Part shown: positions 326-48,813 of the stretch, piece by piece
Numbering within the stretch: the first letter of the stretch is position 1
How the letters are laid out: each line of letters opens with the position of its first letter
NCBI GenBank assembly: GCA_964551735.1
Contig: CAZKEF010000014.1
Span: 54,820 to 118,819, forward strand
Direction of reading: 5' to 3'
From: an uncultured Anaerolineales bacterium
Lineage (GTDB): Bacteria > Chloroflexota > Anaerolineae > CG2-30-64-16
DNA length: 64,000 nucleotides
Translations under genes and position numbers: made by a program
The notes under the pieces: model-generated
Seen by the model: the letters and a program-made list of their open reading frames with translations, nothing else
What the model was told of the DNA's origin: nothing
Database searches by the model: none

Positions 326-1387
326 TCACGGCTTCCCAAATGCCTCAATCGCCTCGGCAATAACCGGCAGGCTGATCCGCCAGCGGTCCAGCGGCACGTT
401 CTCCGAGATCTGGATCTGCAAACGGCCGGTGTGGCCCGCGTCAGCCAGGATTTGGTCGGCCACGGCCCGGATTTCTGCGGGCGGCGCCAGGTGCACCGAT
501 GACGGGAAATTCAGCCACAGCCGCTTCTCGGGCCACATCGCGACCGCTTCGGCCACCGTCGTGTCGCAATCGGGTGTGGGCGTGAAGGAGTCCAGCCCGC
601 CCACCCGGCTGCGGGCGATATCCTTCCACAACGGCTTCAGCATCCCATCCATATGCGAAAAGACGGGGATTCCCCGGTCAGCCAGCATCGCGTCCAACTC
701 ATCATACAACCGCGCGCAGTATTTGCGGAAGCGCGCCGGACCGATGGCCGAGGCCGTGATGTTGTCCACCATGACGATGAACGGCGCCGGTGAGCGCCGG
801 GCGATCTCGAAGGTCTGCCGGGCGCGGCGCTCCAGCAGCTCCAGCGTGTGCTCGACATGCTCGGGCCAGTCGGCCAGATGATACGCCAGCGGCTCCAGCC
901 CCACCCATTCGATCCAGAGCTGCTGCCACGGCGTGCGCTCGATCTCGGTCTTGGGGATGCCGTCGTCGCCCAGCTCGGCGCAGTCGCGGTAGTACTGATC
1001 GTAGTTGTCCAGGATGACCGCGTCCTCCAGGTAGCTCCACAGCCGCTCGTAATCCTCCCGCGTCTCGATGAAGTGCTTGCGCGCCACCGAGCTGTCGAAG
1101 GCCGGCTCGAAGGCGCGCAGCTCGGTCAGCTCGCCGGCCGGCGTGTGGATGACGTTGCGCTCCCACTTCGCGCCGCCCTCGAAGAAGATCTCGCTCTCGC
1201 GGCGGCAGTGCGGCGTCTCAGCACGGAAGATCGAGCAGAAGCGGATGCGCCCGATGTTGCCGCGGCCGAGCACTGCGCGCACTTCGTCGTAGGGCAGCAG
1301 GATCTCGTACATGGCAAAGGGCACGCGGTCGTGCTCGCGGCCCTGGATAACGGCGAGCATCCGCTGGCGCATGGTCATGCTGTACAA
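326..1387 (-). CDS. URO-D-like (uroporphyrinogen decarboxylase / MtaA-CmuA methyltransferase superfamily) protein, paralog 1
   Basis: 353-aa ORF with the URO-D/TIM-barrel family pattern shared with 5 other ORFs in the window. Carries HMDG instead of the H-x-C motif. Confidence 0.65.
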   Translation of the reverse strand: MYSMTMRQRMLAVIQGREHDRVPFAMYEILLPYDEVRAVLGRGNIGRIRFCSIFRAETPHCRRESEIFFEGGAKWERNVIHTPAGELTELRAFEPAFDSSVARKHFIETREDYERLWSYLEDAVILDNYDQYYRDCAELGDDGIPKTEIERTPWQQLWIEWVGLEPLAYHLADWPEHVEHTLELLERRARQTFEIARRSPAPFIVMVDNITASAIGPARFRKYCARLYDELDAMLADRGIPVFSHMDGMLKPLWKDIARSRVGGLDSFTPTPDCDTTVAEAVAMWPEKRLWLNFPSSVHLAPPAEIRAVADQILADAGHTGRLQIQISENVPLDRWRISLPVIAEAIEAFGKP

Positions 1388-1414
1388 GGTAGTGCGTTCT
1401 CCTCTGGCAAGAGT

Positions 1415-1482
1415 CCTGGAATCGAGGCTTCAGCCGGTTATGTGCTCCGCCCAGAGAGACCGGCTAAAGCCTCGATTCCGGA
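1415..1482. repeat. REP-like palindromic interspersed element, family A (core GAATCGAGGCTTYAGCCGG ... CCGGCTRAAGCCTCGATTC)
   Basis: Near-identical copies at 11695-11757, 11782-11847, 12880-12948 and 28835-28897, plus a half-copy at 41929-41956. Confidence 0.7.
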
Positions 1483-2678
1483 TGATTTCCGGCCGCTTCG
1501 TTCAGTTCCGCCACCAGCCGCGCCAGCGCCGCCCCGCCGATGCCCCGTGCCGCGGCCGCCTGGCTGATCGGCTCCCAGAACGGCACGGGGCTGTCCGCAC
1601 ACGGGATGCCGTAACGCTCGAAGACTGCCCGCGTCCCCGGCCAGGCCTCGGCCACGAACACCGTGGACATGGTGGGCGTCACCTCTCCCCCTGCCCCCTC
1701 TCCTGCCAGGCGAGGGAGTACCGCTCCGCCCCCTTCCCTCGCAGGGAAGGGGGATGGGGGGTTAGGTCCCAACACCCGCGTCGCATTCCCGCCCAGGATG
1801 TCCGCCCGCACATCGTCCGGTAGCCCCAGCGCAGCGATCTCCGCCAGGAACGGCCGGAAGTCGGGCTCGGCCTGGCTTCGGGGGTAGAGCCGCAGCGGGT
1901 AGTCGGAGGCGTAGAGCAGCTTGCGGTGATCCACGCAGCGCAGCGCCACGTCGAAGATCTCGTGCGTGCGGTATTGCAGCGGCGACGCGGCGGTGTCGTA
2001 CCACACGTTGCGCAGCGTCCGCCGCACCTCCGGCATCAGCTCGTAGAAGAAGAGCCCACCGCCCCAGTGCGCCAGGATCAGCCGCAGCTCCGGGTAGCGG
2101 CTCGCCAGGCGATAATAATCGCGCAGCGGCGTCGTGGCCTTGCCCGGATAGAAGCCGCCGACCTCCTCGTTGGTGTGCAGGTTGATCGGGATCTCGTAGC
2201 CGATGCACGCCTCGGCCAGGCGCAGAAACGCGGGATCGTCCAGGCGGTAGCCCTGGCCGTAGGGGCCGAGCTCGCCCACGCCGACCATGCCGCCGTCCAG
2301 GCAGCGGGCGAGCTCGTCCAGCGCGGCCTGGCCGGCCAGCGGCTGGAGGATGGCGAACGCGCTCACCCGGTCCGGCCAGCGGCGGATGATTTCGAGCGCT
2401 TCGCTGTTGCGCGCCGCGCAGCCCTCGTGCGACCGGCGATACTCGCCCATCAGCACGACGCGATCCACGCCGGCCGCGTCCATGTGCGCGATCATGCACT
2501 CGGCCGTGGCCCAGCCCTGGAGGCTCTGCCCGCCGGGCCGGGGCGCCAGCATCTGGCCCCAGAACGGCTCGGCCGCGATGAACGCGTCCAGGTCGGCCGC
2601 CAGCGACGGCGGGGTGTAGTGGACGTGTGCGTCAATCAGCATGGTGCCCCTCCACCGGTTCGTCCGGCGCTGATGCAC
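1464..2678 (-). CDS. Amidohydrolase-2 family metal-dependent hydrolase with C-terminal DUF1858-like extension; ORF contains two interspersed palindromic elements
   Basis: The N-terminus has IDAHVH, then the family motifs HTNE, ILAHWGG and YASDYP. The C-terminal ~70 aa FERYGIPCADSPVPFWEPIS resembles DUF1858. A ~110-nt GC-rich palindromic element (1681-1790) is translated in-frame, and the stop codon TAG lies inside a REP-like element (1415-1482). Confidence 0.6.
   Translation of the reverse strand: MHQRRTNRWRGTMLIDAHVHYTPPSLAADLDAFIAAEPFWGQMLAPRPGGQSLQGWATAECMIAHMDAAGVDRVVLMGEYRRSHEGCAARNSEALEIIRRWPDRVSAFAILQPLAGQAALDELARCLDGGMVGVGELGPYGQGYRLDDPAFLRLAEACIGYEIPINLHTNEEVGGFYPGKATTPLRDYYRLASRYPELRLILAHWGGGLFFYELMPEVRRTLRNVWYDTAASPLQYRTHEIFDVALRCVDHRKLLYASDYPLRLYPRSQAEPDFRPFLAEIAALGLPDDVRADILGGNATRVLGPNPPSPFPAREGGGAVLPRLAGEGAGGEVTPTMSTVFVAEAWPGTRAVFERYGIPCADSPVPFWEPISQAAAARGIGGAALARLVAELNEAAGNHPESRL
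1681..1790. repeat. GC-rich double-hairpin element, family E, in-frame inside a CDS
   Basis: ~85% identical to 3878-3990. Contains palindromes CCCTTCCCTCGCAGGGAAGGGG and CTCTCCTGCCAGGCGAGGGAG. Confidence 0.65.
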
Positions 2679-3162
2679 GGGCGCGCGTAACCTTGCGCAG
2701 CGCGACAGCCAGCGAGTCGCCGGGCTGGATGTCCACGTCGGCCAGGATGCGCGTCACGTAGGCTTCGATCTCGTTGAAGCCGCTGGCGCGGGCCACTGAC
2801 ACCCGATGGTTGCCATCGGAGACAAAGTAGACGCTGCCCACCTGAAAGACCTCGATGGGCGGCACCCCGATGAACTCGGCCATGGTCACATCAATCCGCA
2901 CCCAGCGATCCCGATCCACCGCGCCGCGCGGGTGGAAATGCCGCGTGAAATCCTGCGACCGGCCCGTGCTGCCCACGATCCGGTCGAGTGGGATGGACTG
3001 CGGCTGAGGCAGGCGCAACCGGCCGTAGTCGCGCAACGCGGCCATCAGGGTGTTGAACGGCAGCAGGTCGGCCGGCCGGCCCGTCAGGCGCGCGCAGAGA
3101 TCCTCGCGGATCGCTGCCCAGCGAGCTTTGAAAAACAATTGCCGGCCGACGTAAAAGCTCAC
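2632..3162 (-). CDS. Hypothetical protein with ParB/sulfiredoxin-like domain
   Basis: Motif IEVFQVGSVYFVSDGNHRVSVARASG resembles the ParB/Srx DGxHR..A core. Start codon uncertain. Confidence 0.4.
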   Translation of the reverse strand: MSFYVGRQLFFKARWAAIREDLCARLTGRPADLLPFNTLMAALRDYGRLRLPQPQSIPLDRIVGSTGRSQDFTRHFHPRGAVDRDRWVRIDVTMAEFIGVPPIEVFQVGSVYFVSDGNHRVSVARASGFNEIEAYVTRILADVDIQPGDSLAVALRKVTRARASAPDEPVEGHHAD

Positions 3163-3180
3163 TTTGCTCCTGCCTGCATC

Positions 3181-4412
3181 TCACCCAAAAACGGTGCGCA
3201 TCCGCTCGCAGTAATACTGCACATTCTCCCACCGGGCATCTGGCGGGATGCGGTGGTCGGGGCAGGGGATGTAGCCGCCCAGGTCCACCAGTGGCCGGAG
3301 CCGTTCGATCTCGGCGTCAATCGCCGCGTAGTCGTAGGCAAAGACCTTCTTGTCCATGCCACCCACGCCCCGCAGCGCCCGGCCGTACTGCGCCCGCCAC
3401 GGCGCGATGCTGGCGTGCCAGGTGCCGACCTCGATGGGAAACATGGTGTTCACGCCGTTCTCCAGCCAGATCGGCAGCAGCTTATCAATCATACCGTCGC
3501 AGTCCAGCGACACGATGCCGATGCCGTGGTCGTTCAGCAGCCGCGTGATCCGCCGGTAGTGCGGGCCGACCAGCCTGGCAAACAAGCGCGGGTTCACCAG
3601 CGGGCCGTTCTTGAAGCAGATGTCCTCCCAGAAGTGACCGTAGTCGAAGGGGATGCCCGTTGCCAGCACCGCAGTCGTGCCTTGATAGCTCAGCTCGGCC
3701 ACGGTCTCGATCATCTCCTCCAGCAGGGCGGGATCATCCGCGGTCAGATAGCTTAACCCCACCACGCCCAGCCAGTTGCGGATGACGCCGAAGAGGCTGC
3801 CGCACCACAGGCCGCGTGGGAACGAGGGCTCCTCGGCCAGCAGGACCTCCCGGCCGCCCCCGTCGAAGCGCAGGGACCTCACCCCCCTGCCCGCCCTGCG
3901 GGCGTCTCCTGCGAGGAGAGGGGGAATCTGCTCCCCTTCCCTGGCAGGGAGGGGGCTGGGGGGTAGGTGAACCCTTGCGCGCCCTAACCGGCTTTCGGTG
4001 TACCGCAGCCGCGGCCGGAAGATGCGCTCCCACTCGACACGCCCCTTCAGCAGGTGGTCAATCTCCGCCGGGATCGAGACGACGTCATCCTTCTCCAGCA
4101 CGATGGCGCCATCCCTGTCGAGCACGTGCCGCGCGCCATCAGGCAGCTCGGCGACCACGCGGCGGCGGAAGGCGGGCTGCAAGCCCAGGTACGGGCCGAA
4201 GACGCCGCCCCAGCCGAAATCAAAGCCCAGGCGCTCACACAGGGCGCGATCATAGGCGTTGTTATCGTACCAGCCGGCGGCCAGGGTCTTGCTGATGTGC
4301 CCCTCGGCCGCCCACTTCTCCAGCGTCTCGTCCCAGTAGCCGAAATGGACGATCGGCAGCCGGTCGTAGGGCTGATAGTTCAGGATCGCCAACGTCTGCT
4401 CGCGGTTGTTCA
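3181..4412 (-). CDS. URO-D-like family protein, paralog 2, with in-frame palindromic element insertion
   Basis: The likely true start is the internal ATG giving MNNREQTLAILNYQPYDRLPIVHF, a typical URO-D-like N-terminus. The N- and C-terminal halves are family-like, separated by an in-frame GC-rich palindromic element (3878-3990) encoding PPSPLPAREGEQIPPLLAGDARRAGRG. Confidence 0.6.
3878..3990. repeat. GC-rich double-hairpin element, family E, in-frame inside URO-D paralog 2
   Basis: Paired with 1681-1790. Same orientation and same reading frame (PPSP[FL]PAREG). Confidence 0.65.
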
Positions 4413-5975
4413 TCGTATGCTCTCGCTGCTTGCAGTCATCCTGCCCTTGTCTGCGGCAGCGGCGTTGGCGCGAGCCGCGGTCACGTCCGCTGCCATCTGC
4501 TCGACCGTCTTCACGTGCAAACGCGCAGCGCCACGGTAGTCGCGCGTTCGAACTCGCGTGCCATTGCGCTCGGCCTCCGCCAGGCCCGCGGCGGCCTGGG
4601 AAATCTCGGCGGCGTATTGCGGAAGCCATTGGGCCTCTGCGACCAACATCTCATCGGTCATTTGCCAAACCTCCTCCGGGTTGCACACCGCGCCGACCAG
4701 GGGATCGTGTAACATGGCCTGCTTGAGCAGCAGCACATCACCCCGCACCGCGGCCTCCATGCCCATCTCCTGAACGCGCACGCTGGCTGCGCAGGTGGCC
4801 GCACACGCCAGAGGCAAAGCGCCCACCACCGGCATGTTGATGCCGGTCCTGTCCACATAGCCAGGAATCTCGACCACGCACCCGTCAGGCAGGTTGGTGA
4901 TGTGGCCACGGTTGATCACATTGAAATGGCCTCGGTAGATGCGACCGGTCTCCAAGGCCTCGATAATGTAGGAGCCGTGCTCCTCGCTCCGATTGGCTGG
5001 GGTGATCGCGGGCGGCTCCTCGGCCAGCCACTGTGGGAAGTCGGTCTCGAACCAGTGCCGTCCCTCGGAACACACGCGCAGATAGCCGCCGGATTCGCCA
5101 TTGATCCAACTCGAAAGATCGATCCATTGCCCGATCTCTTCCGGCCGCTTCCGGTACCACGGCAGGTATTCGCTCAAGTGGCCGTTAGATTCGGTGCTGT
5201 AGTAGCCGAAGCGTCGCAGGACGTCCACGCGCACCTTCTCGCTCTGCCGGTACTCCGGGTGGCGCCCGAAAAGCTCGGGCAGAAGCGGGATCATGTCCCG
5301 CCCGCGCCATTCCGCTTTGACGAACCAGGTCTGGTGGTTGATGCCGGCGGCGACGACGTCAACCTCGCGGCGGTGCATTTCGTAGTCCGGCGGGATGAGG
5401 CCCTGCTCCTTCGCCCACATCTCCACGCAGCGCGTGATCTGCCAATGCGCGCCCTGCACGCCGTGACACAGCCCCACCGTGGGCACGCCACCGTACCGAT
5501 TGCAGGCCCATGTGTTCATCGCCATCGGGTTCGAGTAATTCAGGAGGAGCGCTCCCGGCTTGGCAACTTCGCGCATATCCCGACAGATGTCGAGCAGCGC
5601 CGGAATGGTGCGCTGCGCATAGAACAGGCCACCAGCACAGATCGTGTCGCCGACGCATTGATCCACCCCGTACTTGAGCGGAATGTCTATGTCGAACTGG
5701 AAGGCCTCCAACCCTCCCTGGCGGATCGTGCAAATCACGTAATCGGCGTCCGCGATGGCCGAGCGGCGCTCCAGCGTGCTGATGATCGTTGCCGGCAGCC
5801 CGTTCGCTCGGATGTCACGTTCGCAAAGCTGGGTTACCATGTCCAGGTTGGCCTGGGAAATGTCCATCAGGGCAAAGGCAGTGTCGGCCAACTCCGGCAC
5901 TGCGAGGATATCACGCATCAAGCGGCGCGTGAAACCGATGGATCCTGCGCCGATCATCGCGATCTTGATGGGCAT
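4410..5975 (-). CDS. Glycoside hydrolase family 4 (NAD/Mn-dependent alpha-glucosidase/alpha-galactosidase type)
   Basis: N-terminal Rossmann motif MPIKIAMIGAGSIGF, 521 aa, and the conserved GH4 core (CHGVQG, NHQTWF). Confidence 0.8.
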   Translation of the reverse strand: MPIKIAMIGAGSIGFTRRLMRDILAVPELADTAFALMDISQANLDMVTQLCERDIRANGLPATIISTLERRSAIADADYVICTIRQGGLEAFQFDIDIPLKYGVDQCVGDTICAGGLFYAQRTIPALLDICRDMREVAKPGALLLNYSNPMAMNTWACNRYGGVPTVGLCHGVQGAHWQITRCVEMWAKEQGLIPPDYEMHRREVDVVAAGINHQTWFVKAEWRGRDMIPLLPELFGRHPEYRQSEKVRVDVLRRFGYYSTESNGHLSEYLPWYRKRPEEIGQWIDLSSWINGESGGYLRVCSEGRHWFETDFPQWLAEEPPAITPANRSEEHGSYIIEALETGRIYRGHFNVINRGHITNLPDGCVVEIPGYVDRTGINMPVVGALPLACAATCAASVRVQEMGMEAAVRGDVLLLKQAMLHDPLVGAVCNPEEVWQMTDEMLVAEAQWLPQYAAEISQAAAGLAEAERNGTRVRTRDYRGAARLHVKTVEQMAADVTAARANAAAADKGRMTASSESIR

Positions 5976-5981
5976 CTGAGT

Positions 5982-7064
5982 TTACTCCTGATATGACCCC
6001 AGCCGCTTCGCCATTTCGACAATCGCGCGAAAAGCGGCCAGGCTGACGCTGGAGGGCACCGAATGATCGGACGAGAAGATGTAGCCGCCCGATTCCTTGA
6101 GCGCCGGCACGAGGCGCTCCATCTCAGGCCGGACGAGCGCCGGATCATCCCACAGCACGGCGTTGATCCCGCCGTGCAGCACCAGATCCTTGCCGAACTC
6201 CCGCTTCAGCGCCAGCGGGTCCATCCCGGCTTTCACTTCCAGCGGATTGAGCGCATCGAGCCCCATCGAGACCAGCTCCGGGACGAACGGGCGGATGTCG
6301 CCGCACGAGTGTAGGTGCGCCTTGATCCCCTTGGCGTGCGCCCAATCAATCGCCCGCTGGTGGAACGGCTTGAGCACCTGCCGGTACTTGCGCAACGAGA
6401 AAAACTGGTGTCCCTTATAGCCCATGTCATCCCACCAGAAGACGCTGTCGAAGCGATACCCCGCGTCCCACACGCGGTCCCAGAGCGCCAGGCTGGTCTC
6501 CAGCATCGTCTCGAAAACATCCATCAGCCAGGCGGGATCTTCGACCAGGTTCATCAGCACGCGCTCCGTGCCCAGCGTCCAGGAATGGGTGACGTCGAAC
6601 CCGAACCAGAGGGCCGCCTGCAGCCAATCCCCGCGCGCCTGCCAGATCGGATAGTTCGCGGCCAGGTACGCCCAATCAATGCGATCAGGGCTGGTCGTGA
6701 TGCGCTTCTTGGCCACCTCCCAGCTCGCCCGATCCACGATGGTGAAATCGAGGAACTCCGGTGTGGAAGCCTCATGCTTCCACTCGCGCATGGTCACGCC
6801 CCAATCGCTGGTGTAGATCCTGTACTCGTCCGTTTCTTCCAGCGTCCGTTTTTCATACTGCGGCGAGCCGTCCACGAAGAGCAGGTTGACGCGGTCAATA
6901 TCGAAGTAATCCTCGAAGTCAACCCCCTCGGGCAGCCCTTCGCCGCGCCAACGCTCAATCGTGGCATGCCACGGCACGTCGGTGATGGGGACGCGGTCCG
7001 CCGCGCGGTGCTCGAACATGCGCGTGAAGCGCTCTTTGGTTGTGAGTTTGGGTTGAATCATCAT
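5982..7064 (-). CDS. URO-D-like family protein, paralog 3 (H-x-C motif present: HLHSCGD)
   Basis: 360-aa ORF, family-like throughout, with an HSC motif. Confidence 0.65.
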   Translation of the reverse strand: MMIQPKLTTKERFTRMFEHRAADRVPITDVPWHATIERWRGEGLPEGVDFEDYFDIDRVNLLFVDGSPQYEKRTLEETDEYRIYTSDWGVTMREWKHEASTPEFLDFTIVDRASWEVAKKRITTSPDRIDWAYLAANYPIWQARGDWLQAALWFGFDVTHSWTLGTERVLMNLVEDPAWLMDVFETMLETSLALWDRVWDAGYRFDSVFWWDDMGYKGHQFFSLRKYRQVLKPFHQRAIDWAHAKGIKAHLHSCGDIRPFVPELVSMGLDALNPLEVKAGMDPLALKREFGKDLVLHGGINAVLWDDPALVRPEMERLVPALKESGGYIFSSDHSVPSSVSLAAFRAIVEMAKRLGSYQE

Positions 7065-8323
7065 GACAGGCCGACCACCCGTCCCTCGCGCCGCGCCTGC
7101 TCGGCTGCAAACACCATCAGGTGCGTCTCCAGCGACTCGGCCGGGCCGGAGAGGATCAGCGACGGGTCGCCCGTGCGCAGCGCGCCGACGAAGTGCGTCA
7201 TCAGCGCCAGGTCTCCGCCGCCGTGGCCGCTCAGAATCGAGCCATCGCTGGCGGTCTCCGCGTCGATCCGTTCCGTCGTGTCGGTCATGAAGTCGTACAC
7301 CTCGATGAACCGCCCGTTGCCGTAGAGCTCCCCGCGCGTCCCGAAGATCCGCGTCTCGCGGTCGCGCTGGCGGTTGAAGGCGGTCATGGTGAAAGAGGCC
7401 GTCGCGCCGCCTTCGAACTGCATGGCGACCACCTGGTGGTCCACCACGTCGTTGTCGCAGGCGTAGACGCAGCGGCCGTACGGCCCCGTGCGCAGCGCGG
7501 CCAGCAGCCCCGCCTCGCTCACGTCCGGCGTCAGCACGTTGAGCGGCCAGCCGGTGATGCCGCGCCGCAGGCCGGTCAGGTAGATGCGCGGCGCCGAGTA
7601 GGGACAGGATGTCTCAACGGCGCAGTCCAGGCAGCGGTCGGCCGCGCCGGCGGGCCGGTTTTCGGGCCGGAAGTGCAGCAGGCTGCCGAAGGAGGAGACG
7701 AGCGTGCAGGGCCGGCCCATGATGTGCCGGAGCCAATCCAGGTCGTGGCACGATTTCGCCAGCAGCATGGAGGACGACTCGGCCTCGTTGCGCCAGTTGC
7801 CGCGCACGAAGGAGTGCGCCTGGTGCCAGAAGCCCACCGGCTCCAGGTGCTGGATGCTGGCGATCTCGCCCAGCCGGCCGGAGTCCACGATCGCCTTGAC
7901 CTTCTTGGTGTAGGCCGTGTAGCGCAGCACGTGACACACCGCGAACATGGCCCCGCTGGCCTGCGCCGCGGCGGCGATCTGCCGGCACTCGGCCGCGGTC
8001 GGCGCCATCGGCTTCTCCAGCAGGATATGGTAGCCGCGCTCCGCGAAAGCGACCGCCGGCTCGGTGTGCAGCGCATCGGGCGTGGCGATGATGACCGCAT
8101 CGGCGAAGCGGGGCTGCGCAGCGGCCTCCCGCCAGTCGGCGTAAACGTTACCGGCCGGGATGCCGTGGCGGGCAGCCAGCGCCGCGCGGTAATGCTCGCG
8201 CGGCTCGGCCACGCCCACCACCTGCGCCTGGTCGGGATGCCAGTGCGCGTACTCGGCGTAGTTGGCCCCGCGGCTGCCGGCGCCAATGATGAGCAATTTG
8301 ATCGGTGACATCAAGATACACTC
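7061..8323 (-). CDS. Gfo/Idh/MocA-family NAD(P)-dependent oxidoreductase (in-frame with upstream GT1, no intervening stop)
   Basis: The internal start MSPIKLLIIGAGSRGANYAEY is preceded by GAAGGAGTG. Gfo/Idh/MocA N-terminal Rossmann fold, and the C-terminal domain is family-like. Confidence 0.65.
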   Translation of the reverse strand, partial: ECILMSPIKLLIIGAGSRGANYAEYAHWHPDQAQVVGVAEPREHYRAALAARHGIPAGNVYADWREAAAQPRFADAVIIATPDALHTEPAVAFAERGYHILLEKPMAPTAAECRQIAAAAQASGAMFAVCHVLRYTAYTKKVKAIVDSGRLGEIASIQHLEPVGFWHQAHSFVRGNWRNEAESSSMLLAKSCHDLDWLRHIMGRPCTLVSSFGSLLHFRPENRPAGAADRCLDCAVETSCPYSAPRIYLTGLRRGITGWPLNVLTPDVSEAGLLAALRTGPYGRCVYACDNDVVDHQVVAMQFEGGATASFTMTAFNRQRDRETRIFGTRGELYGNGRFIEVYDFMTDTTERIDAETASDGSILSGHGGGDLALMTHFVGALRTGDPSLILSGPAESLETHLMVFAAEQARREGRVVGLS

Positions 8324-9598
8324 CTTCTGCAGGCTAGTTTCCACCCGCGCCACCACCGCCACGGCACGGGCGATGCCATCCTCAGCCCGAATCTTGCGCC
8401 CCAAATCGGCCGCGCGCCGGCGCATCTCCGCATCGGTCACGGCCCGGTGAATCGCGGCCGCCAGCCGCTCGGCCGTGAGCTGCTTGCGCGGGATCGGCGC
8501 CGGCCCGACCCCCAGGTCGGCCACGCGGCGGCCCCAGAACGGCTGATCCCCGAAGAAGGGCACGACGACGGACGGCACACCCGCTCGCAGCCCGGCCGCT
8601 GTGGTGCCCGCGCCGCCGTGATGCACCACGGCCGCCATGCGCGGGAAGAGCCAGGCGAAGGGCGCGGTTTCCAGCATGAAGACGGAATCCGGCAGGTCAG
8701 CCACCTGCAAGCCGCCCCAGCCGGCCAGCACCACCGCCCGCTCCCCCGTTTGCCGCAGCGCGTGCACGATCAGGCCGGCGGTTTGGGCCGGGTTGCTGAT
8801 GCTCATGCTGCCGAAGCCGATGTAGACGGGCGGCGGGCCGGACTGCAAAAACGCTGCCAGGGTCGGCGGCGGCGTCCAATCTTCCCCCGCATCCAGGAAC
8901 CAGTAGCCGGTGACGTGTACCTCTGGTCCCCCGTCGTCCGGCGGCGGGATCACGGCCGGGCTGAAGCCGTAGAGCACCGGATGCCGGCAGAAGCGCTCGC
9001 CCCGGAACGGCCCGGCCAGGGGCGACGGCGGCAGTCCCAGCACCTTCTGGCGCACCAGGCGGTCGGCGGCCCGAAACGGCTGCCACATCATCTGCCGCGC
9101 CAGGTGATAGGAAGGACGGTTGAGGGCCCCGCCCAGCCAGGACGGCAGCCCCGGCAGCAGGAAGCTGGGATAGGCGCGGGTCGGCGTGAAGGGGATGTAG
9201 TGCGCCTGGATGAACGCCAGGTCCAGCTTCTCGGCCAGCGCGTAGCCCACGAACAGCCCGCCGACGCCGGCCAGCACCGCGTCCATACCGCGGCAGGCCG
9301 CCAGCCCGCCCTCGGCCAACTCCACCGCGCCCCGCTCCGCCTCCCGCGCCATGCGCGCCAGGATGGCGGCGAAGTTGCCCCGCTCCAGCAGTGCGCTCAT
9401 CTCCTGGCCTTGGGCGACCTGCTGCGAGTCGCCCACAATCGGCCAGAACTCGACCCCGTGCGCCGCGGCCAGGCCGGCGAAGTTGCCGTGCGTCACCAGT
9501 CGCACGGCATGGCCGGCCGCAGCCAACCCCTTGCCCAGCGCCAGATACGGCTCGACGTCGCCGCGGCTGCCCGGCGCAACGATTGCGATACGCATTAT
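8324..9598 (-). CDS. GT1-family UDP-glycosyltransferase (MGT/OleD-like)
   Basis: MRIAIVAPGSRGDVEPYLALGKGLAAAGHAVRLVTH is an N-terminal GT1 motif, and the C-terminal half carries the PSPG-like UDP-sugar motif (HHGGAGTTAAGLRAGVPSVVVPFFGDQPFW). The ORF track joins it to the downstream oxidoreductase as one 907-aa ORF. Confidence 0.65.
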
Positions 9599-9599
9599 G

Positions 9600-11666
9600 T
9601 CACCCTCGCCCTGCAAACAGCGCCAGCAGCGCCGGACCGCGCACGAAGACCGGGATGCGCGCCAGCGGCGCGTCGGCGGTGATGGTGACGCCGCCCACCT
9701 GCGCCGCGCCCGTCCAGGCATCGTACCACACCGCCCCCGCCGCCGCATCATCGTAGGGGCGGGGTTCCCCTGCCCTGGCTGCATCGGCGGTCTGCGGCCG
9801 CGGGCAGGGAGACCCCGCCCCTACGAGCGCCGGCAGGTAGACCGAGCGGCCGGTCGCGCCCTGCCGCAAGACCGGCGCCACCAGCACATCCGGCCCGAAC
9901 ATGAACTGATCCTCGACCTCGTAGCAGGCCGGATCATCGGGGAAGTCGAAGAAGAGCGGCCGCATGGGCGGCGCGCCGGTCGCTGCAGCAGTCGCCATCT
10001 GCGCCAGGATATACGGCTTCAGGCGCTCCCGCAAGAACAACAGGTCGCGGATGATAGCGTAGGCCTCGTCGCCGAACGACCAGGCCTCGTTGGGGCCGCC
10101 GGCGTCCCACCCCACCGTCGGCTGGCGCATCCCGTGCAGCCGGAAGAGCGGGCAGAAGACGCCGTACTGGAACCAGCGCACGATCAGCTCGCGGAAGATC
10201 GGATCGGCCGGATCGCCGCCGTGGAAGCCGCCGATATCGGTCGTCCACCACGGGATGCCGCTGAGGCCGATGTTCAGCCCGGCGCGTACCTGGGCCCGCA
10301 GCGCCTCGAAGGTGGAGGGGATGTCGCCCGACCAGACCGCCGCGCCGTAGCGCTGGCTGCCGGCCCATGCGGAACGGCAGAGGGTCACGACGTCCGCCTC
10401 CCCCTCGGCCTTCATGCCTTCCCAGAACGCCTGCTGGTGCAGCAGCGGGTAGAGGCCGGCCACCTCCAGCCCGTTGCCCAGGTGATAGCGCAGGTTCTCG
10501 TGGTCGGGCGGATAGACCTCCGGCTCGCACGCGTCCAGCCACCAGACCCTGACGCCGTGGCGATAGTAGCCCTCGCGCACGCGCTCCCAGATGAAGCGCC
10601 GCGCCTCCGGGTGGGTGGCGTCGTAGTAGCGCAGGTGCACCGGGCCGTTCGCACCCACATCGGTGAACGCCATGTGGCTGGGCTGGCCGCGCTCGGCGCG
10701 CACCAGCAGGCCACGGCGGTCCATCTCCTCGTAGGTCTCAGCGGCCGGGTTCACTGCGGGCCACACGGACACCATCAGCTTGACCCCCAGGTCGTCCAGC
10801 TCACGCACCATCGCCGCCGGATTGGGCCAGGCGGCCGGATCGAAGCGCCACTCGCCCATGCGGGTCCAATGGAAGAAGTCGGCCACAATCACGTCCAGCG
10901 GCAGGCCGCGGCGGTGATACTCGCGCGCCACGGCGAGCAGTTCCTCCTGGCTGCGGTAACGCAGCTTGCACTGCCAGAAACCGACCGCCCACTCGGGTAG
11001 CACAGGCGCGTGGCCGGTCGCGTCAGCGTAGTGGGTCATGATCTCGGCGCAGGAGCCGGCCGTGACCCAATAATCCAACTGGCGGCTCGCCTCGGCAACC
11101 CAGCGCGTGCCGTTGCAGCCCAGTTCCACCCGGCCGACCGCGGGGTTGTGCCACAGGAAGCCGTAGCCGCGGCTGGAGACCAGGAAGGGGATGCTGACCT
11201 CGGTGTTGCGGTGCCACAGATCCACTACGCAGCCCTTCTGATCCAACAGGCCGTGCTGGTGCTGGCCCAGGCCGTAGAAGCGCTCCCCGACGGCGGGCTG
11301 GAACTCGGCCGAGATGTGGTACAGGTCGCTGCTGGCCGGCTTGAACCCGCGCGCCGGCGGCCGGATGAAGCGCGGCGTTGGCTCGGCCAGCAGCAGCGCG
11401 CCGGTGGCCGTATCGGTAAAGCTGATCTGCCCCTCGACGGTCACGTCGGCGCGCAGCCGGCCAACCCGAATAGTGGCAATCTCCGCCCCGACCGTGATCT
11501 CGGCCGCGACCGGCGCAGGCGCCAGCAGCGCGCCCGGCAGCTCATCGCATACTTCGATGCCCTGGGTGGCGCGCACGCGCAAGCTATCGGCGCCCCACGG
11601 CTCGATGCGCACCGTCTCATGTCCGCCCCGCCACAGGAGGGCGTTTGGTTCGTGTGTAAATGACAT
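9600..11666 (-). CDS. Glycoside hydrolase family 31 (alpha-glucosidase/alpha-xylosidase, YicI-like)
   Basis: GH31 catalytic region WWLDACEPE and a conserved N-terminus MSFTHEPNALLW. The C-terminal region contains an in-frame ~70-nt perfect hairpin element (9752-9825). Start chosen at the internal ATG (11664-11666) just downstream of a REP-like element. Confidence 0.75.
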   Translation of the reverse strand: MSFTHEPNALLWRGGHETVRIEPWGADSLRVRATQGIEVCDELPGALLAPAPVAAEITVGAEIATIRVGRLRADVTVEGQISFTDTATGALLLAEPTPRFIRPPARGFKPASSDLYHISAEFQPAVGERFYGLGQHQHGLLDQKGCVVDLWHRNTEVSIPFLVSSRGYGFLWHNPAVGRVELGCNGTRWVAEASRQLDYWVTAGSCAEIMTHYADATGHAPVLPEWAVGFWQCKLRYRSQEELLAVAREYHRRGLPLDVIVADFFHWTRMGEWRFDPAAWPNPAAMVRELDDLGVKLMVSVWPAVNPAAETYEEMDRRGLLVRAERGQPSHMAFTDVGANGPVHLRYYDATHPEARRFIWERVREGYYRHGVRVWWLDACEPEVYPPDHENLRYHLGNGLEVAGLYPLLHQQAFWEGMKAEGEADVVTLCRSAWAGSQRYGAAVWSGDIPSTFEALRAQVRAGLNIGLSGIPWWTTDIGGFHGGDPADPIFRELIVRWFQYGVFCPLFRLHGMRQPTVGWDAGGPNEAWSFGDEAYAIIRDLLFLRERLKPYILAQMATAAATGAPPMRPLFFDFPDDPACYEVEDQFMFGPDVLVAPVLRQGATGRSVYLPALVGAGSPCPRPQTADAARAGEPRPYDDAAAGAVWYDAWTGAAQVGGVTITADAPLARIPVFVRGPALLALFAGRG
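9752..9825. repeat. ~24-bp-stem perfect hairpin element inside the GH31 C-terminal coding region; its 5' end GTAGGGGCGGG matches family C
   Basis: CGTAGGGGCGGGGTTCCCCTGCCC ... GGGCAGGGAGACCCCGCCCCTACG seen directly. Confidence 0.55.
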
Positions 11667-11694
11667 AGGATTACCCGAGATAGGATCATGCTCT

Positions 11695-11847
11695 GGCATC
11701 GAGACTTTAGCCGGTTTGTTGCTCAACGCGAGTGACCGGCTGAAGCCTCCATTCCATCGGATCGCGATGTTGCAGGATTCCTGGATTCGAGGCTTTAGCC
11801 GATTGGACTCGCAACTCAGAGAGACCGGCTGAAGCCTCGAATCCGGG
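11695..11847. repeat. Two tandem family-A REP-like elements immediately upstream of the GH31 start
   Basis: Direct comparison with the other family-A copies. Confidence 0.7.
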
Positions 11848-12981
11848 CTATCTCGTCTCCAGCGCCGCGCGAATCATCGCAAAATACCCCGCATCCGGCA
11901 CGTAATCCGGCACCGAGTTGCCCGTGCCCAGGGCATAGCCGCCGCGGCCGGCCGTGCGTTCCAGCATGGCGCGGGCGCGGGCGTAGACCTGGTCGGGCTC
12001 GGCCCGACAGACGAAGTCCACATCGATCCCGCCGATAATGGCGAAGCGGTCATGGTAGCGTTCATAGGCCTCTTCAACCGGCAGGATGGTGTCCTCGTAA
12101 GAATGGCGGGCATCAATGCCAATGTCGGCCATGTCACCCAGGATGCGCTCGAAGTGCCCGCACGAGTGCAGGATCACTGGCTTGCCGGCCGCGTGGATGG
12201 CCGCGACGATGCGCTTGTGCCACGGGAAGACGTACTGGCGCATCTGACGCGGGGAGAGCATGGTCTGCGTCTTGAAGCCCCAGTCGTCGTTGTCAATGCA
12301 CGCGCCCACGGCGGGATGCGCCGCGGCGATCTCATAGTAGCGCACCAACGTCTCGCCCACGGCCTCGAAGACGCACTCGACCAGGTCCGGGTCGTCGGCC
12401 AGCAGCAGGCAGAGCTTCTCGAAACCCATGATCTCAGTCACATTCTCCAGCACGCCGCCCGGCCCGTAGGCGATCAGCTTCATCCCGTCCGGCATTACCC
12501 CAGCCAGCGCGTCGAAAATACCATAGTCGGCCGCCTCGACATCCGGCCAGCGGTAGGCCTCGTAAGAGGGCCAATCCACGATCAGCCCGCCGGCGTTGAG
12601 CGACACCGTGCGGCCGGTGAAATCGCGGCCGGTGGGGAAATCGAAGCCCGGCACGCGCACGTTGCTGAAATCATAACCGGCGCGGTAATAGGCCTGCAAG
12701 ACCCGGCGCTCGGTGCGATACGGGCTGTCGGGAATGGAAGCCAGCGGCGCCAGCCGCTCGTGCAGCCGGTCGTTGAGGAAGAACTCGAACAGGGTAGGCC
12801 GCGCAGGGACCTCCCGGCGCAGGACGGCCAGCAGGTTGTTGAAATCAGGCCTGGGGGCCGGCAAATCGTACCAGTCATCCTGGAGTCGAGGCTTTAGCCG
12901 ATCTGTCTCCTCAAGGGAAGCAACCGGCTGAAGCCTCGATTCCGGATATTCTGCTGACACACTGGAAACCCCATCAATCAT
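11848..12981 (-). CDS. URO-D-like family protein, paralog 4 (H-x-C: ILHSCGH); N-terminal region reads through a REP-like element
   Basis: GGAGGGG SD 6 nt upstream of the ATG at 12979-12981 (MIDGVSS). Residues PESRLQPVASLEETDRLKPRLQ are encoded by REP element 12880-12948. A downstream in-frame TTG is an alternative start. Confidence 0.6.
   Translation of the reverse strand: MIDGVSSVSAEYPESRLQPVASLEETDRLKPRLQDDWYDLPAPRPDFNNLLAVLRREVPARPTLFEFFLNDRLHERLAPLASIPDSPYRTERRVLQAYYRAGYDFSNVRVPGFDFPTGRDFTGRTVSLNAGGLIVDWPSYEAYRWPDVEAADYGIFDALAGVMPDGMKLIAYGPGGVLENVTEIMGFEKLCLLLADDPDLVECVFEAVGETLVRYYEIAAAHPAVGACIDNDDWGFKTQTMLSPRQMRQYVFPWHKRIVAAIHAAGKPVILHSCGHFERILGDMADIGIDARHSYEDTILPVEEAYERYHDRFAIIGGIDVDFVCRAEPDQVYARARAMLERTAGRGGYALGTGNSVPDYVPDAGYFAMIRAALETR
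12880..12948. repeat. Family-A REP-like element, in-frame within the 5' end of URO-D paralog 4
   Basis: Sequence identity to the other copies. Translated as PESRLQPVASLEETDRLKPRLQ. Confidence 0.65.
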
Positions 12982-14161
12982 GGTAACCCCTCCATGCGCG
13001 GGCAGTCTCATACATCGCCGCCAAGTTGACGGCCGGGGTGCGCGGGGCCAGGTTGTTGGCTTCGCGCAGCACGAACCGCCCGCCCTCGCAAACGCCCGAA
13101 CCCAAGATGCGCGCCGTCTCGGCCCGCACGTCCTCCGGCGATCCATCACGCAGGATCATCACCGTCGGGCCGCCGTGGATCGTCACGTCCGGCCCCAGCT
13201 CGCGGCGGAGGCGGCCGTGATCCACCGGGAAGCCGGTCTCGAAGTCGTTGACGCCCAACTCATCCTTCAACCAACGGAAGTGCCGGGTCGCGTCGCCGCA
13301 CAGGTGGATCTTAACCTGCTCTGCGGTCGTAATACCCGCCTTCAGCTTGCGGTAGACGGGCAACATGAACTCACGCGCCATCTTGACCGAGATCAGTTGC
13401 AGGGCGTCATCGGCGAACCACATAGTATCCGGCGGATCCGGCAGCCCGAAGAAGCGGGCATGGGCGCGCACGCGAGCAATGGTGACTTCGGTGAGGAAGT
13501 CGAGCAGCGTGCGCGCATAGTCCGGGTCCTCGTAGAAGTCAGTGAACAACTCATGACCGCGCAGAGATACAGCCAGCGTCAGCGGGCCGCCGCTCCACCA
13601 GCCGAACGGGTCAACCTGCACCGGCCAACCGCGATACTCCGGCTCACGACGCAACCGCTCCTGCCACCGTTCGAGCATCTCGTGCGCCCGCCGGTACCAG
13701 CCCCTTCGACTTCGCTCAGGACAAGCGCCGGTCAGTGGATCGGGCAGGCCCGCGTCGAACAGCGCGTTCTTGCGATCGCCGGCCAAGATGGGTGGCGTAT
13801 CGGGCACCTGGCCCGGCAGAAAAAGCACCGGTGCGCCCAGATACGCGGCCTCGTCGAAGTTTTGCAGGTCAATCCGCACCAGCCACGCCTCTCGGTTCGG
13901 CGGCATCCCGACCGGATCATCGCAGAAGGGCGCGATGTGCTCGGCCCGCCAGGCCGCCGCGCGTAACTGGAAGTCCAGCATCGTATCGGCGTCCGTGCAA
14001 TAGCGCTCCCAGTCCACCGCACCGCCGGGGTTCACCGCATCGTTGTAGATGAAGAACTGCGTGGCCGTGCCCAGCGCGACCGGCGGCCGGATCGGCGCCC
14101 TCGCGTTGAACGCGTCCCAAACGGCCTGGGCTTCGGCGTTGTGTTCTTCACTGGAAGTCAT
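12974..14161 (-). CDS. URO-D-like family protein, paralog 5 (H-x-C: KIHLCGD, distal Cys SGVCEGG)
   Basis: Start MTSSEEH is preceded by GGAGCATCC. Family-like throughout. Confidence 0.65.
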   Translation of the reverse strand: MTSSEEHNAEAQAVWDAFNARAPIRPPVALGTATQFFIYNDAVNPGGAVDWERYCTDADTMLDFQLRAAAWRAEHIAPFCDDPVGMPPNREAWLVRIDLQNFDEAAYLGAPVLFLPGQVPDTPPILAGDRKNALFDAGLPDPLTGACPERSRRGWYRRAHEMLERWQERLRREPEYRGWPVQVDPFGWWSGGPLTLAVSLRGHELFTDFYEDPDYARTLLDFLTEVTIARVRAHARFFGLPDPPDTMWFADDALQLISVKMAREFMLPVYRKLKAGITTAEQVKIHLCGDATRHFRWLKDELGVNDFETGFPVDHGRLRRELGPDVTIHGGPTVMILRDGSPEDVRAETARILGSGVCEGGRFVLREANNLAPRTPAVNLAAMYETARAWRGYHD

Positions 14162-14275
14162 GGATGCTCCGTGGTGCGTATTGCGTATTACGTACTGCAC
14201 GCTGGCCCGATCTCCCTCGTCCCCCGTGTGTCATCGGTCGTCAGTCATCCGTCGTCGGTCGTCATTCGTCGTCCG

Positions 14276-15370
14276 TCACTCCCCCAACAACCCCTCCGCC
14301 CGAAACGCCTCAACGCACGCTGCGGCCTGCTCAGGGGTCAGGAAGCCGTCGTCACCGGTCAGGCAGAAGACGAAGCCCCTGCCGCCCAGCTCGCGCGCGA
14401 TGGTGAGCGCGCCCTCGGGCGACACGAAGAGCTGGCACAGCTTACCGCCGTCGCGAATGCGCTTCAGCAGCGGCAGCCACTCCTCCGGCGGCGGCGCGCC
14501 GTCGCCGGGGATCCACTGGATGCCCCGCAGCCGCTCGATGGTCAGCAGCATGTCCAGGTGTTTGATCTCGCCCTTGCCGTCCAGGTGGTAGAACGCATAG
14601 TCCAACGCATCACAGCACGCGGTCAGGTCCGGCAGGATCAGCCGCTCGAACATGCGCGGGGAAATCATGTAGGAGAAATCGCTTTGCAGCATGTAGCACG
14701 TGCCCGGCGCCCACAGCGGGCTCCAGCAGGAGGTGCCGCGGTTAGTAGCGGCTACCAGGCGGTGGAACTCATCGTAGTAGCGCAGCCAAAGCGGCGTGAT
14801 CTGCCGCGCCAGGCGGTCCACTTCATCCGGCGCGTCGTATAGATCGAGCAGGAGCTGCTGCGTGTCGCGCAGCGAGGCCAGGATGTCCAGGTTACCGCCC
14901 AGGTCGGTATGGCCGATCACCACGCGATTCCCCCAACGCTCGACTGCGGCGCGCGTGACCGCGGCGACGCGCTCCCACCAGGGGTTCTCCAGCGTGAACG
15001 CCAGGTTCGTCTCGGCCAGCGACGTGATGCCGCTGGGGTAGAACCATGTAGTGCCCTCGGATGCGCCAACGGGTGAGCCGAGAAACGCGGCGATGACGCC
15101 CGGCCCGAAGTTGGGCCACCACTTGGGGAACGCGTCGCCGGCCCACAGCAGCGCATCCATCTCCGCGGCGTAGTGGTCAATCACCGCTTCGGCCGACATG
15201 CTCAGCGGGAACCCGGTGATGTGATCCCACCAGGCACCGCCGCGATCCCGCCGTCGAGCCATGGCCTCGATCACGACCAGCGGCCGATCCAGTTCACCCT
15301 GCCACCAGGCGTTCCAATTGCGTGCGTTGCGAGCCCAATCCTCGTCATTGAATTGCAGGTAATGTTTCAT
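14276..15370 (-). CDS. URO-D-like family protein, paralog 6 (no H-x-C; YHLDG)
   Basis: 364-aa ORF, family-like. Repeat family C element lies in its 5' region (15387-15440). Confidence 0.6.
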   Translation of the reverse strand: MKHYLQFNDEDWARNARNWNAWWQGELDRPLVVIEAMARRRDRGGAWWDHITGFPLSMSAEAVIDHYAAEMDALLWAGDAFPKWWPNFGPGVIAAFLGSPVGASEGTTWFYPSGITSLAETNLAFTLENPWWERVAAVTRAAVERWGNRVVIGHTDLGGNLDILASLRDTQQLLLDLYDAPDEVDRLARQITPLWLRYYDEFHRLVAATNRGTSCWSPLWAPGTCYMLQSDFSYMISPRMFERLILPDLTACCDALDYAFYHLDGKGEIKHLDMLLTIERLRGIQWIPGDGAPPPEEWLPLLKRIRDGGKLCQLFVSPEGALTIARELGGRGFVFCLTGDDGFLTPEQAAACVEAFRAEGLLGE

Positions 15371-16498: not shown

Positions 16499-16628
16499 CA
16501 GCTTTCCCCTATACTCAAAACTACCCGAACATGCCGGGCACTGACGGAGTGCCCGACGCGTTGCAGATGCAACCTTCTCCTGTGGATTGTGGCATATATG
16601 AACGGAGAGAATACCAAGTTGGTCTGCG

Positions 16629-28804: not shown

Positions 28805-28834
28805 TGGGAGACTAACGATCTGGGCTTTGCGGTC

Positions 28835-28897
28835 CAGAATCGAGGCTTCAGCCGGTCTTTCAGGGCAACCCAAGCAGCCGGTTGAAGCCTCGACCCC
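28835..28897. repeat. Family-A REP-like element in a convergent intergenic region
   Basis: Sequence identity to the other copies. Confidence 0.65.
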
Positions 28898-47917: not shown

Positions 47918-47952
47918 CGTTACTCCCATGCACCCGCCTGGTTGGCCGACCG

Positions 47953-48723: not shown

Positions 48724-48813
48724 ACCGGATCTGTCTCCACGGGCGGCGCGCGCAGCGCGACCACCGGTCTGAACCATGGATTTCAGGGTAACATCATACC
48801 ACGATCTTTCGAT

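Follow-up and report, generated by a model that had tools for sequence, protein, structure and literature searches.

Six uroporphyrinogen-decarboxylase-fold genes in a glycosidase operon of an uncultured Anaerolineales bacterium: candidate metal-dependent sugar enzymes with a possible link to corrinoid-dependent demethylation

HemE, the uroporphyrinogen decarboxylase (URO-D) of heme synthesis, needs no metal cofactor, and cobalamin-independent MetE carries a His-x-Cys zinc site. The methanol:corrinoid methyltransferase MtaB is a TIM barrel of a separate protein family and serves here as a functional analogy only, with no sequence relationship claimed. By polarising the methanol C-O bond, its Zn(Glu, Cys, Cys) site lets Co(I) attack. 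This sets a precedent for aliphatic C-O-methyl cleavage, and a sugar O-demethylase would have to perform the same chemistry. More directly comparable are MtaA and MtbA (PDB 4AY7; TIGR01463), with zinc ligands in an H-I-C motif, and the methyltransferases I (MT-I) of O-demethylase and dehalogenase systems (OdmB, VdmB, MtvB and CdmB; PDB 9RUI). MT-I enzymes share the URO-D superfamily, have aryl methyl ethers or methyl halides rather than sugars as known substrates, and are encoded directly beside a corrinoid protein, a second methyltransferase (MT-II) and an activase. Some MT-I members contain zinc and CdmB contains none (PMC13222342). The only route for sugar demethylation in the literature searched is the aerobic P450 route (PMC6292453). 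P450 sugar demethylases of marine Bacteroidetes, acting on 6-O-methyl-galactose, are encoded in polysaccharide-utilisation loci near glycosidases and remove a blocking methyl ether (PMC6292453, PMC10033563). Here we analyse a stretch of 64,000 nucleotides (the window; contig CAZKEF010000014.1, positions 54,820 to 118,819, assembly GCA_964551735.1) from an uncultured Anaerolineales bacterium. Six URO-D-fold genes, named U1 to U6, are interleaved there with glycosidase genes. Their products might be metal-dependent enzymes acting on sugars, and three of them possibly take part in a corrinoid-linked removal of sugar methyl ethers.

All six genes lie on the minus strand: U1 at 326..1378, U2 at 3181..4413, U3 at 5982..7064, U4 at 11848..12981, U5 at 12974..14161 and U6 at 14276..15370. 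An initial annotation of the same DNA had recognised all of them; its range for U2 began at 4412, which is out of frame. The Pfam profile URO-D (PF01208, cut-off 23.9 bits) takes in four of the six proteins, U4 with 84.9, U5 with 73.1, U3 with 53.8 and U1 with 31.5 bits, and its matches span only the C-terminal half of the profile. U2 stays below the cut-off with 21.3 bits and U6 has no Pfam match even at E = 10. These two are connected by profile-profile comparison with hhalign, U2 to U3 at a probability of 100% (343 columns) and U6 to U5 at 96.5%. Further links join U4 to U5 (99.3%), U3 to both U4 and U5 (98.9% each), and U1 to U2 (92%) and U4 (90.5%). AlphaFold models (both with a predicted local distance difference test score of 86) have MtaA, UROD and MetE as their nearest solved structures, clearly ahead of generic TIM barrels, and their similarity to UROD equals that to MtaA. 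Membership of all six in the URO-D/MtaA/MetE TIM-barrel superfamily, as first proposed, is established. Pairwise identities among the six do not exceed 28%, and we therefore regard them as ancient paralogs rather than products of local amplification. They are the sole URO-D-fold genes in the window. Related loci mostly hold a single URO-D gene (65 of 83) and only four hold at least five, so that six within 15 kb is far from chance. Several paralogs per genome are also typical of MT-I genes, as in acetogen and Desulfitobacterium genomes.

The six proteins do not fall into any of the reference families. Placement relied on profile-profile comparison, curated-model cut-offs and family clustering instead of a tree. 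Tree placement would be meaningless because identities are 12-20% and profile E-values to the MtaA, HemE and MT-I groups are nearly equal. The hemE equivalog model TIGR01464 (cut-off 303 bits) was failed by a wide margin, with 20.6 bits for U4 and no match for the other five. Pfam searches of the window's open reading frames (ORFs), covering nearly all long ORFs with high G+C at third codon positions (GC3), recovered no heme or cobalamin synthesis genes. Models of the MtaA/CmuA type (TIGR01463, NF040654, NF041608) gave at best 66.3 bits for U4, 56.1 for U5 and 25.9 for U3, and nothing for U1, U2 and U6, whereas the curated cut-offs for MtaA, MtbA and MtaA-CmuA lie at 235-600 bits. Identity to MtaA/MtbA is 12-16%, and, unlike those enzymes, the U-genes sit in a glycosidase operon without coenzyme M context or an adjacent corrinoid protein in the window. 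Searched against PDB sequences, the U5 family profile reaches MtaA (3.8e-10), CdmB (7e-10) and plant UROD (8e-10) alike, the U4 profile gives 0.015, 0.37 and 0.11 for the same three, and the U3 profile finds nothing significant. The U-families thus appear near-equidistant from all reference groups. U5 and the corrinoid-adjacent MT-I proteins of relatives are linked by hhalign at 98%, and such links between U-type and O-demethylase MT-I proteins are at superfamily level only. The relatives' MT-I proteins differ by their length of 416-440 aa, their N-terminal extensions and the lack of His-x-Cys. They cluster apart from U1-U6 (BLAST E 1e-4 or worse). No match to Pfam Meth_synt (PF01717), the domain of MetE, was found among U1-U6. 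By curated thresholds and clustering, none of the six is a HemE, an MtaA/CmuA or an O-demethylase MT-I. Many U6-family members are named "5-methyltetrahydrofolate--homocysteine methyltransferase" by IMG despite having no Pfam domain, which is a source label and not a test.

U3, U4 and U5 share an invariant His-x-Cys-Gly. The motif reads HSCGD in U3 (His252-Ser-Cys254), HSCGH in U4 (His272-Ser-Cys274) and HLCGD in U5 (His286-x-Cys288). No family alignment shows a substitution at its His or Cys (in U4, all 84 members, drawn from at least eight phyla, have both), and HMMER alignment places it on the H-I-C of MtaA (4AY7). U3 and U4 also have an invariant Glu exactly 22 residues past the Cys (E276 and E296), facing the VEEK segment of MtaA in the alignment. 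In U3, Asp333-His334 is invariant as well. The U5 family alignment leaves only H286, C288, G289, D251, R25 and G109 invariant, together with the start Met. A Glu at Cys+22 is a zinc ligand in both MtaA and MetE. The third zinc ligand of MtaA, the Cys of PGCG after the last strand, has no counterpart. It corresponds to Asn in U5 (segment EANNL) and, by motif position, to N355 in U4 (Asn in 84/84) and His334 in U3 (segment SDHS). The initial annotation had correctly read the His-x-Cys in paralogs 3, 4 and 5 and its absence from the other three. Its proposal of an MtaA-type His/Cys/Cys site, with a more distal Cys in U4 and U5, does not hold: Cys325 of U4 occurs in 64 of 84 family members, the other 20 having hydrophobic residues, and the distal Cys of U5 is not conserved in its family.

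The three remaining proteins would carry diverged variants of the same metal site. U1 has His-Met-Asp (SHMDG, aligned on LHSCG), U6 a family-invariant His262-x-Asp264 (YHLDG), and U2, a full-length U3 homolog, has lost the His (Leu-Asp-Cys) and retained the Cys, Glu and Asp-His. For U3, U4 and U5, the His-x-Cys argues for an alkyl-transfer-type zinc site, as in MtaA and MetE, that would activate the methyl acceptor. Taken alone the motif is no sign of corrinoid use, because MetE has the site, CdmB is zinc-free and His-x-Cys is missing from the corrinoid-linked MT-I proteins in relatives of this lineage. It can therefore not be read as a signature of corrinoid dependence, which is how it had been read at first. 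Many URO-D proteins encoded directly beside corrinoid proteins do share the H-x-C-G motif.

The U-genes belong to a run of 12 densely packed genes, all on the minus strand from 16501 to 326, in the order LacI, U6, U5, U4, GH31, GT1-Gfo, U3, GH4, U2, a 176-aa ORF, Amidohydro_2 and U1. Stop and start codons overlap at U5/U4 (8 nt), GT1-Gfo/U3 (4 nt) and GH4/U2 (4 nt). A fourth overlap, between the 176-aa ORF and Amidohydro_2, hinges on the start assigned to the small ORF, and most other gaps are short. The LacI-family regulator at the head (15485..16501; Pfam LacI HTH and Peripla_BP_3/1) follows the sole strong sigma-70-like promoter match, at 16669-16641. An Rfam scan of the window returned zero matches and hence no cobalamin riboswitch, and a terminator scan of the window did no better than shuffled sequence. 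Interleaving of the paralogs with GH4, GH31, GT1, Gfo/Idh/MocA and LacI genes had been noted initially and is confirmed, with the qualification that GT1 and Gfo form one ORF. The glycoside hydrolase of family 31 (GH31, 9600..11699) is an alpha-glycosidase of the alpha-xylosidase or alpha-glucosidase-like type (Pfam Glyco_hydro_31, 291 bits), and its 240 bits against the NCBIfam alpha-xylosidase model stay under the cut-off. The family 4 enzyme (GH4, 4410..5975) has both the N- and C-terminal Pfam domains and passes the NCBIfam alpha-galactosidase model PRK15076 (559 bits, cut-off 486), which makes it alpha-galactosidase-like. Between them lies the ORF at 7061..9595, with a family 1 glycosyltransferase (GT1, Rgt/MGT-like; residues 1-418) followed by a Gfo/Idh/MocA oxidoreductase (432-844). 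The two share these 844 aa without an intervening stop codon. Gfo orthologs are separate genes in two related loci (L015 and L007), and the ORF is either a real fusion or the result of a stop codon lost in assembly. The 176-aa ORF (2632..3162) has high GC3, no Pfam match and an unknown function. Amidohydro_2 (1464..2642; PF04909, 119 bits) encodes a metal-dependent hydrolase of the lactonase/decarboxylase type. Its C-terminal extension of about 60 aa resembles a redox-disulfide domain in a weak match to TIGR03980 (hybrid-cluster-protein-associated redox disulfide; 23.7 bits, below cut-off). G+C of the window is 65%, close relatives are labelled Chloroflexota or Anaerolineae, and the host may be an anaerobe, to judge from a gene for aldehyde:ferredoxin oxidoreductase (18159-20135).

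The sugar context recurs across many genomes. U3, U4 and U6 each comprise thousands of clusters at 90% identity in a word-indexed search, their best 120 matches being at least 56-65% identical, and U5 has 85 representatives at 50% clustering (E < 1e-30). At least 283 species genomes carry a U4-family member, and identities between phyla stay at or above 50%. Anaerolinea thermolimosa IMO-1 has a U4 ortholog as well (L014). Hosts include Chloroflexota, Planctomycetota, Lentisphaerota, Verrucomicrobiota/Kiritimatiellia, Spirochaetota, Clostridia, Armatimonadota and Aminicenantes, as well as Fimbriimonadaceae, Pirellulales and Tepidisphaerales. Across 80 U4 loci with 10-kb flanks no neighbour proved to be conserved, the commonest being an AraC regulator (9/120 flanking genes). 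URO-D genes made up another 6/120, alongside assorted GH2, GH29, GH43 and GH127 enzymes and sugar-binding proteins. U3 loci feature GH38, FGGY kinase, Lar_N, HAD hydrolase, MFS/ROK and URO-D triplets, U6 loci FucI and GH2. Rhamnosidase, PfkB kinases and AraC/LacI/ROK regulators are further neighbours of the U-families. Synteny with the window is pronounced in L003, where LacI, U6, U5, U4, GH31 and U2 are followed by an ABC sugar transporter, a fusion of AP_endonuc_2 with URO-D, and an FGGY kinase. L015 runs from Gfo, GH31, a weak U5-like gene, U6 and U4 into five more URO-D genes. GH31 orthologs thus adjoin U4 or sit within the URO-D array in both L003 and L015, and the U2 ortholog adjoins GH31 in L003. 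Arrays of eight (L015) and seven (L007) URO-D-fold genes both stand beside Gfo, with GH31 in L015. The tie of the U-families to sugar metabolism is robust, and the operon linkage with glycosidases reported at first holds and recurs in relatives. The fusion in L003 (18554-20926) is a protein of 790 aa beside the FGGY kinase. Its AP_endonuc_2 part is a xylose-isomerase-like TIM barrel, and it is a possible Rosetta-stone link of URO-D-fold proteins to keto-sugar isomerase or lyase chemistry.

Corrinoid genes stand near U-type genes in a minority of relatives. A hidden Markov model for MtaC-type corrinoid proteins matched in 3 of the 80 U4 loci within 10 kb, a RACo reductive activase was found in 1/80 and a pterin methyltransferase in 0/80. 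The three with a corrinoid protein are L076, L004 and L015. The most complete case is a Clostridia metagenome-assembled genome from goat colon (L076, 8465-16938). A GH29 fucosidase gene and, 17 bp further on, a U4-like gene (51% identity) come first. After a divergent AraC regulator there follow a U3 ortholog with 53% identity across 352 aa, a corrinoid protein, an MtaA-like URO-D of full length with HNCG, and RACo. With a U3-family protein at its head, this is a complete system of corrinoid methyltransferase genes and a compact candidate for a locus that processes a (methylated?) fucoside in a corrinoid-dependent way. Among species genomes, U4 has its closest ortholog (72% identity) in a co-directional operon (L004). 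This operon comprises genes for a GH31-like protein, an enolase-superfamily dehydratase, an aldolase, PfkB kinase, HAD hydrolase and DeoC aldolase, then the U4 ortholog itself, and with it a second URO-D, a corrinoid protein, an SDR and a 2-hydroxyacid dehydrogenase. In L141 only 56 bp separate a U4-family fragment (48% identity) from the corrinoid protein downstream of it. In L168 a corrinoid protein is accompanied by U3-like, U2-like (32% identity) and U6-like (37% identity) genes, S-methyl_trans and DUF1638. At the end of the L015 array stand a URO-D (HTCG) and a gene for a corrinoid protein, the latter split into two frames. A RACo-like match in L031 was rejected, having 29 bits only and probably being a generic ASKHA-fold protein. 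A second sample of 80 metagenome loci, to which L141 and L168 belong, was centred on corrinoid proteins of the L004 type. Their neighbours (of 98) were URO-D (10), Pterin_bind (6), S-methyl_trans (4), RACo and DUF1638 (3 each) and MTTB (2), with glycosidases absent from the 25 most frequent neighbour families. The U-type families are thus close kin of corrinoid methyltransferases of proven context, occasionally found in such systems and usually alone in sugar loci.

We suggest that the region is a single LacI-controlled operon for the intracellular processing of decorated alpha-glycosides, in which the six URO-D-fold proteins might act as metal-dependent enzymes on sugars freed by GH4 and GH31. 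Methyl transfer of the MtaA/MtaB type would be the most likely chemistry of U3, U4 and U5. Zinc on the His-x-Cys, joined by the Glu in U3 and U4, would bind an oxygen or sulfur of the sugar substrate, and the methyl group would be exchanged with a cob(I)amide/methyl-cob(III)amide carrier. The carrier protein would come from elsewhere in the genome and not from the operon. Such a reaction would remove O-methyl groups that block ordinary sugar catabolism. Because of the operon setting, methylated sugars released by GH4 and GH31 would be the natural substrates. U1 and U6, with His-x-Asp, and U2, with the Cys only, would have altered metal sites and may serve other substrates or steps. Zinc binding, methyl transfer, corrinoid use and methylated-sugar substrates are the steps that we infer here; operon structure, fold, the conserved motif with its alignment to the MtaA ligands, the recurrent sugar context and the occasional linkage to corrinoid-protein and activase genes are the observations from which they start. 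For the explanation as a whole, with U3, U4 and U5 as zinc-dependent methyl transferases in corrinoid-linked sugar demethylation, we put the probability at about 0.4. The idea of corrinoid-dependent demethylation of glycosidase-released sugars goes back to the initial annotation. Of that version, the superfamily, the glycosidase linkage and the motif stand, and corrinoid genes beside U3/U4 orthologs (L076, L004, L141) and at the end of the L015 array add to it, whereas the His/Cys/Cys site and the partner locus have been given up. The fallback given with it, abundant URO-D-family proteins of unknown function, remains tenable.

Several observations weigh against sugar demethylation by U3, U4 and U5. 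No corrinoid protein, activase or MT-II is encoded in or next to the operon, and no RACo across the 64 kb. In the U4 sample, 77 of the 80 loci (96%) have no corrinoid gene within 10 kb. Corrinoid-centred loci show a tight clustering of partner genes, unlike U4 loci, and clustering at 38% identity puts most corrinoid-adjacent URO-D proteins outside U1-U6. Even in L004, the corrinoid-protein gene adjoins a different URO-D family and not U4. Scores against the curated MtaA/CmuA models top out near 66 bits against cut-offs of at least 235. The predicted metal site lacks the third Cys ligand of MtaA, and the full site is absent from U1, U2 and U6. Fimbriimonadaceae, Pirellulales and Tepidisphaerales, which carry the U4 family, are usually regarded as aerobic. 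Corrinoid O-demethylases are not known to act on anything but aryl methyl ethers, and an alkoxide is a much poorer leaving group. Literature searches on the U-families, on URO-D proteins in sugar clusters, and on corrinoid-dependent or anaerobic sugar demethylation found nothing relevant.

A broader version of sugar demethylation by these proteins would take in the widespread orphan families together with U3, U4 and U5. All would be zinc- and corrinoid-dependent O-demethylases of aliphatic (sugar) methyl ethers in Chloroflexota, Planctomycetota, Verrucomicrobiota, Lentisphaerota, Spirochaetota and gut Clostridia. A corrinoid protein would take up the methyl group, an MtaA-like second methyltransferase would receive it next, and a folate or a thiol/sulfide sink would be its final acceptor. 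Such proteins would be an anaerobic counterpart of the P450 sugar demethylases, which differ by their unrelated fold and by an oxygen-dependent monooxygenation yielding formaldehyde. We consider this extension doubtful. Sugar methyl ethers occur in pectin rhamnogalacturonan II, algal galactans and bacterial or cyanobacterial exopolysaccharides, and they block ordinary catabolism. The one route for sugar demethylation found in the literature searched, that of the P450 enzymes, needs oxygen. The U-families are large, highly conserved, unannotated and located in glycan-utilisation loci. If the extension were true, corrinoid O-demethylation would reach past aryl methyl ethers to a new substrate class for cobamide enzymology, and would account for anaerobic use of 2-O-methyl-fucose or -xylose, 3-O-methyl-hexoses and similar sugars. 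It would also mean that communities of the gut, of digesters and of sediments have a new need for cobamides, and would make polysaccharides a new source of one-carbon units, or of methanethiol and methane precursors. Should the proteins not be methyltransferases, they would still be a large unexplored group of carbohydrate-metabolism enzymes on the URO-D fold.

The explanation that survives best beside sugar demethylation is that the proteins convert sugars without corrinoids, a serious possibility that we hold tentatively. One family after another would have adapted the URO-D scaffold to unusual sugars, catalysing their isomerisation, epimerisation, elimination or decarboxylation with the help of a metal and without methyl transfer, and the enzymes would work beside the NAD-dependent GH4 and the oxidation-elimination chemistry of Gfo/Idh/MocA. 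Such enzymes would fit the large majority of U4 loci, and all further inspected U3 and U6 loci except L076, in which no corrinoid gene is found. They would also fit neighbours such as kinases, isomerases (FucI), aldolases, dehydrogenases and AP_endonuc_2 proteins, the AP_endonuc_2 and URO-D fusion of L003, and the spread into lineages regarded as aerobic. The His-x-Asp of U1 and U6 offers harder ligands, as is typical of metal sites of the sugar isomerase type, and a His/Cys/Glu zinc site is also present in polyol dehydrogenases. Conversely, the His-x-Cys-Gly with Glu is the exact alkyl-transfer signature of MtaA and MetE, and the linkage of U3/U4 orthologs to corrinoid-protein and RACo genes (L076, L004, L141) would be left unexplained. 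The superfamily offers no precedent either, its known members being porphyrinogen-acetate decarboxylases or methyl/alkyl transferases (PMC10418091).

Quite unlikely is the wiring first proposed, in which the paralogs pass sugar methyl groups to a corrinoid protein in the window (47213-47929) and an MT-II (49136-49918) hands them on to tetrahydrofolate. Both genes noted at first are confirmed, some 32 kb from the operon. An MFS transporter (45969-47213) is followed by the corrinoid protein (47213..47929, minus strand; B12-binding_2 and B12-binding domains, GDIHDLGK motif), which is an ortholog, 79% identical, of the first corrinoid protein in L084. Next come a GntR/UTRA regulator (47953..48777, minus strand), in an arrangement shared with L084-L088, and the plus-strand gene for a putative pterin-binding methylcorrinoid:tetrahydrofolate methyltransferase of the MT-II type (49136..49918; Pfam Pterin_bind, 66 bits), with 80% nucleotide identity to L084 10001-10795. 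Corrinoid protein and MT-II are intact and have no MT-I beside them, so that some MT-I would still be needed if they are functional, and U1-U6 are the only URO-D-fold genes in 64 kb. The relatives tell against this partnership. In five contigs (L084-L088) whose pterin methyltransferase falls into the same cluster at 90% identity, the unit of corrinoid protein, GntR and MT-II runs on into a corrinoid protein, a URO-D (416 aa), another corrinoid protein and two URO-D genes (422 and 440 aa). The number of genes downstream varies, with two or three for additional corrinoid proteins and from two to four for MT-I. These MT-I proteins are of the O-demethylase type (motif IPLHRGADGF) and have no significant BLAST similarity to U1-U6. 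The window retains a 60-nt stump of this arrangement at 50057..50116 (plus strand), the first 20 codons of the second corrinoid-protein gene, with 92% nucleotide identity to L084 10867-10916 (tblastn E = 8e-5). Past it, the sequence diverges into a SLAC1-type gene of opposite orientation. The stump therefore marks the corrinoid locus as a deletion remnant of a classic O-demethylase cluster that has lost its MT-I genes. About 32 kb of unrelated genes (ScpB, PFK, PanB, ABC transporters, peptidase, DegV) separate it from the operon, the regulators differ (GntR against LacI), and the corrinoid proteins found beside U-type genes elsewhere are of another subtype, 31% identical to that of the window. 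The evidence for the corrinoid locus as partner of the operon is weak.

A slim chance goes to cobalamin-independent transfer as in MetE, in which zinc would activate a thiol or hydroxyl and the methyl group would move directly to or from folate or another small molecule. The spacing of 22 between His-x-Cys and Glu fits MetE, most loci are without corrinoid genes, and the IMG name of the U6 cluster points the same way as a label. Against this stand the missing Meth_synt match, an operon without folate-related genes and the established chemistry of methyl ethers, which are too poor as donors without a supernucleophile. Genuine HemE or heme-pathway paralogs have next to no chance: source annotations do read "uroporphyrinogen decarboxylase" and the fold is as close to UROD as to MtaA, yet the TIGR01464 scores, the C-terminal reach of the Pfam matches, the lack of tetrapyrrole genes nearby, six copies in a sugar operon and UROD structures without His-x-Cys (1j93 has ILYASGS opposite ILHSCGH of U4) all speak against it.

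The window also contains a family of palindromes of about 75 nt that resemble repetitive extragenic palindromic (REP) elements (repeat family D3/D4), at 1407-1481, 11772-11846, 12871-12945 and 28825-28899, with half copies at 11721-11756 and 41919-41954. Their stems are conserved (GGAAUCGAGGCUUCAGCCGG ... CCGGCUGAAGCCUCGAUUCC) and their loops vary. The predicted hairpins reach -40 to -49 kcal/mol (z -4.4 to -5.8), and the elements have no Rfam match. Three copies fall between operon genes, and one of them, at 12871-12945, overlaps the annotated 5' end of U4. The annotated U4 start is uncertain because of this repeat and because U4 orthologs, about 347 aa long, match only from about residue 36. 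The true start probably lies downstream of 12981.

A further ORF starts about 200 nt downstream of U1 and leaves the window on its left side (1 to about 130, minus strand), with the N-terminus MPAIHDLRSYLQVLEAAGQLARIQRPV... By eye, this N-terminus (MPAIHDLRSYLQVLEAAGQL...) looks like that of a UbiD-family decarboxylase. A corrinoid gene just past the left edge, as in L015, had been considered and was dropped once the ORF starting there was recognised as UbiD-like. Elsewhere in the window, a gene for a 729-aa protein with a double Peripla_BP_4 domain (34012-36201) holds a direct duplication of 588 nt with 100% identity (34138-34725 and 35179-35766, spacing 1041 nt), and a 74% copy is found at 37245-37458. 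The duplication is either a recent internal event or an assembly artefact.

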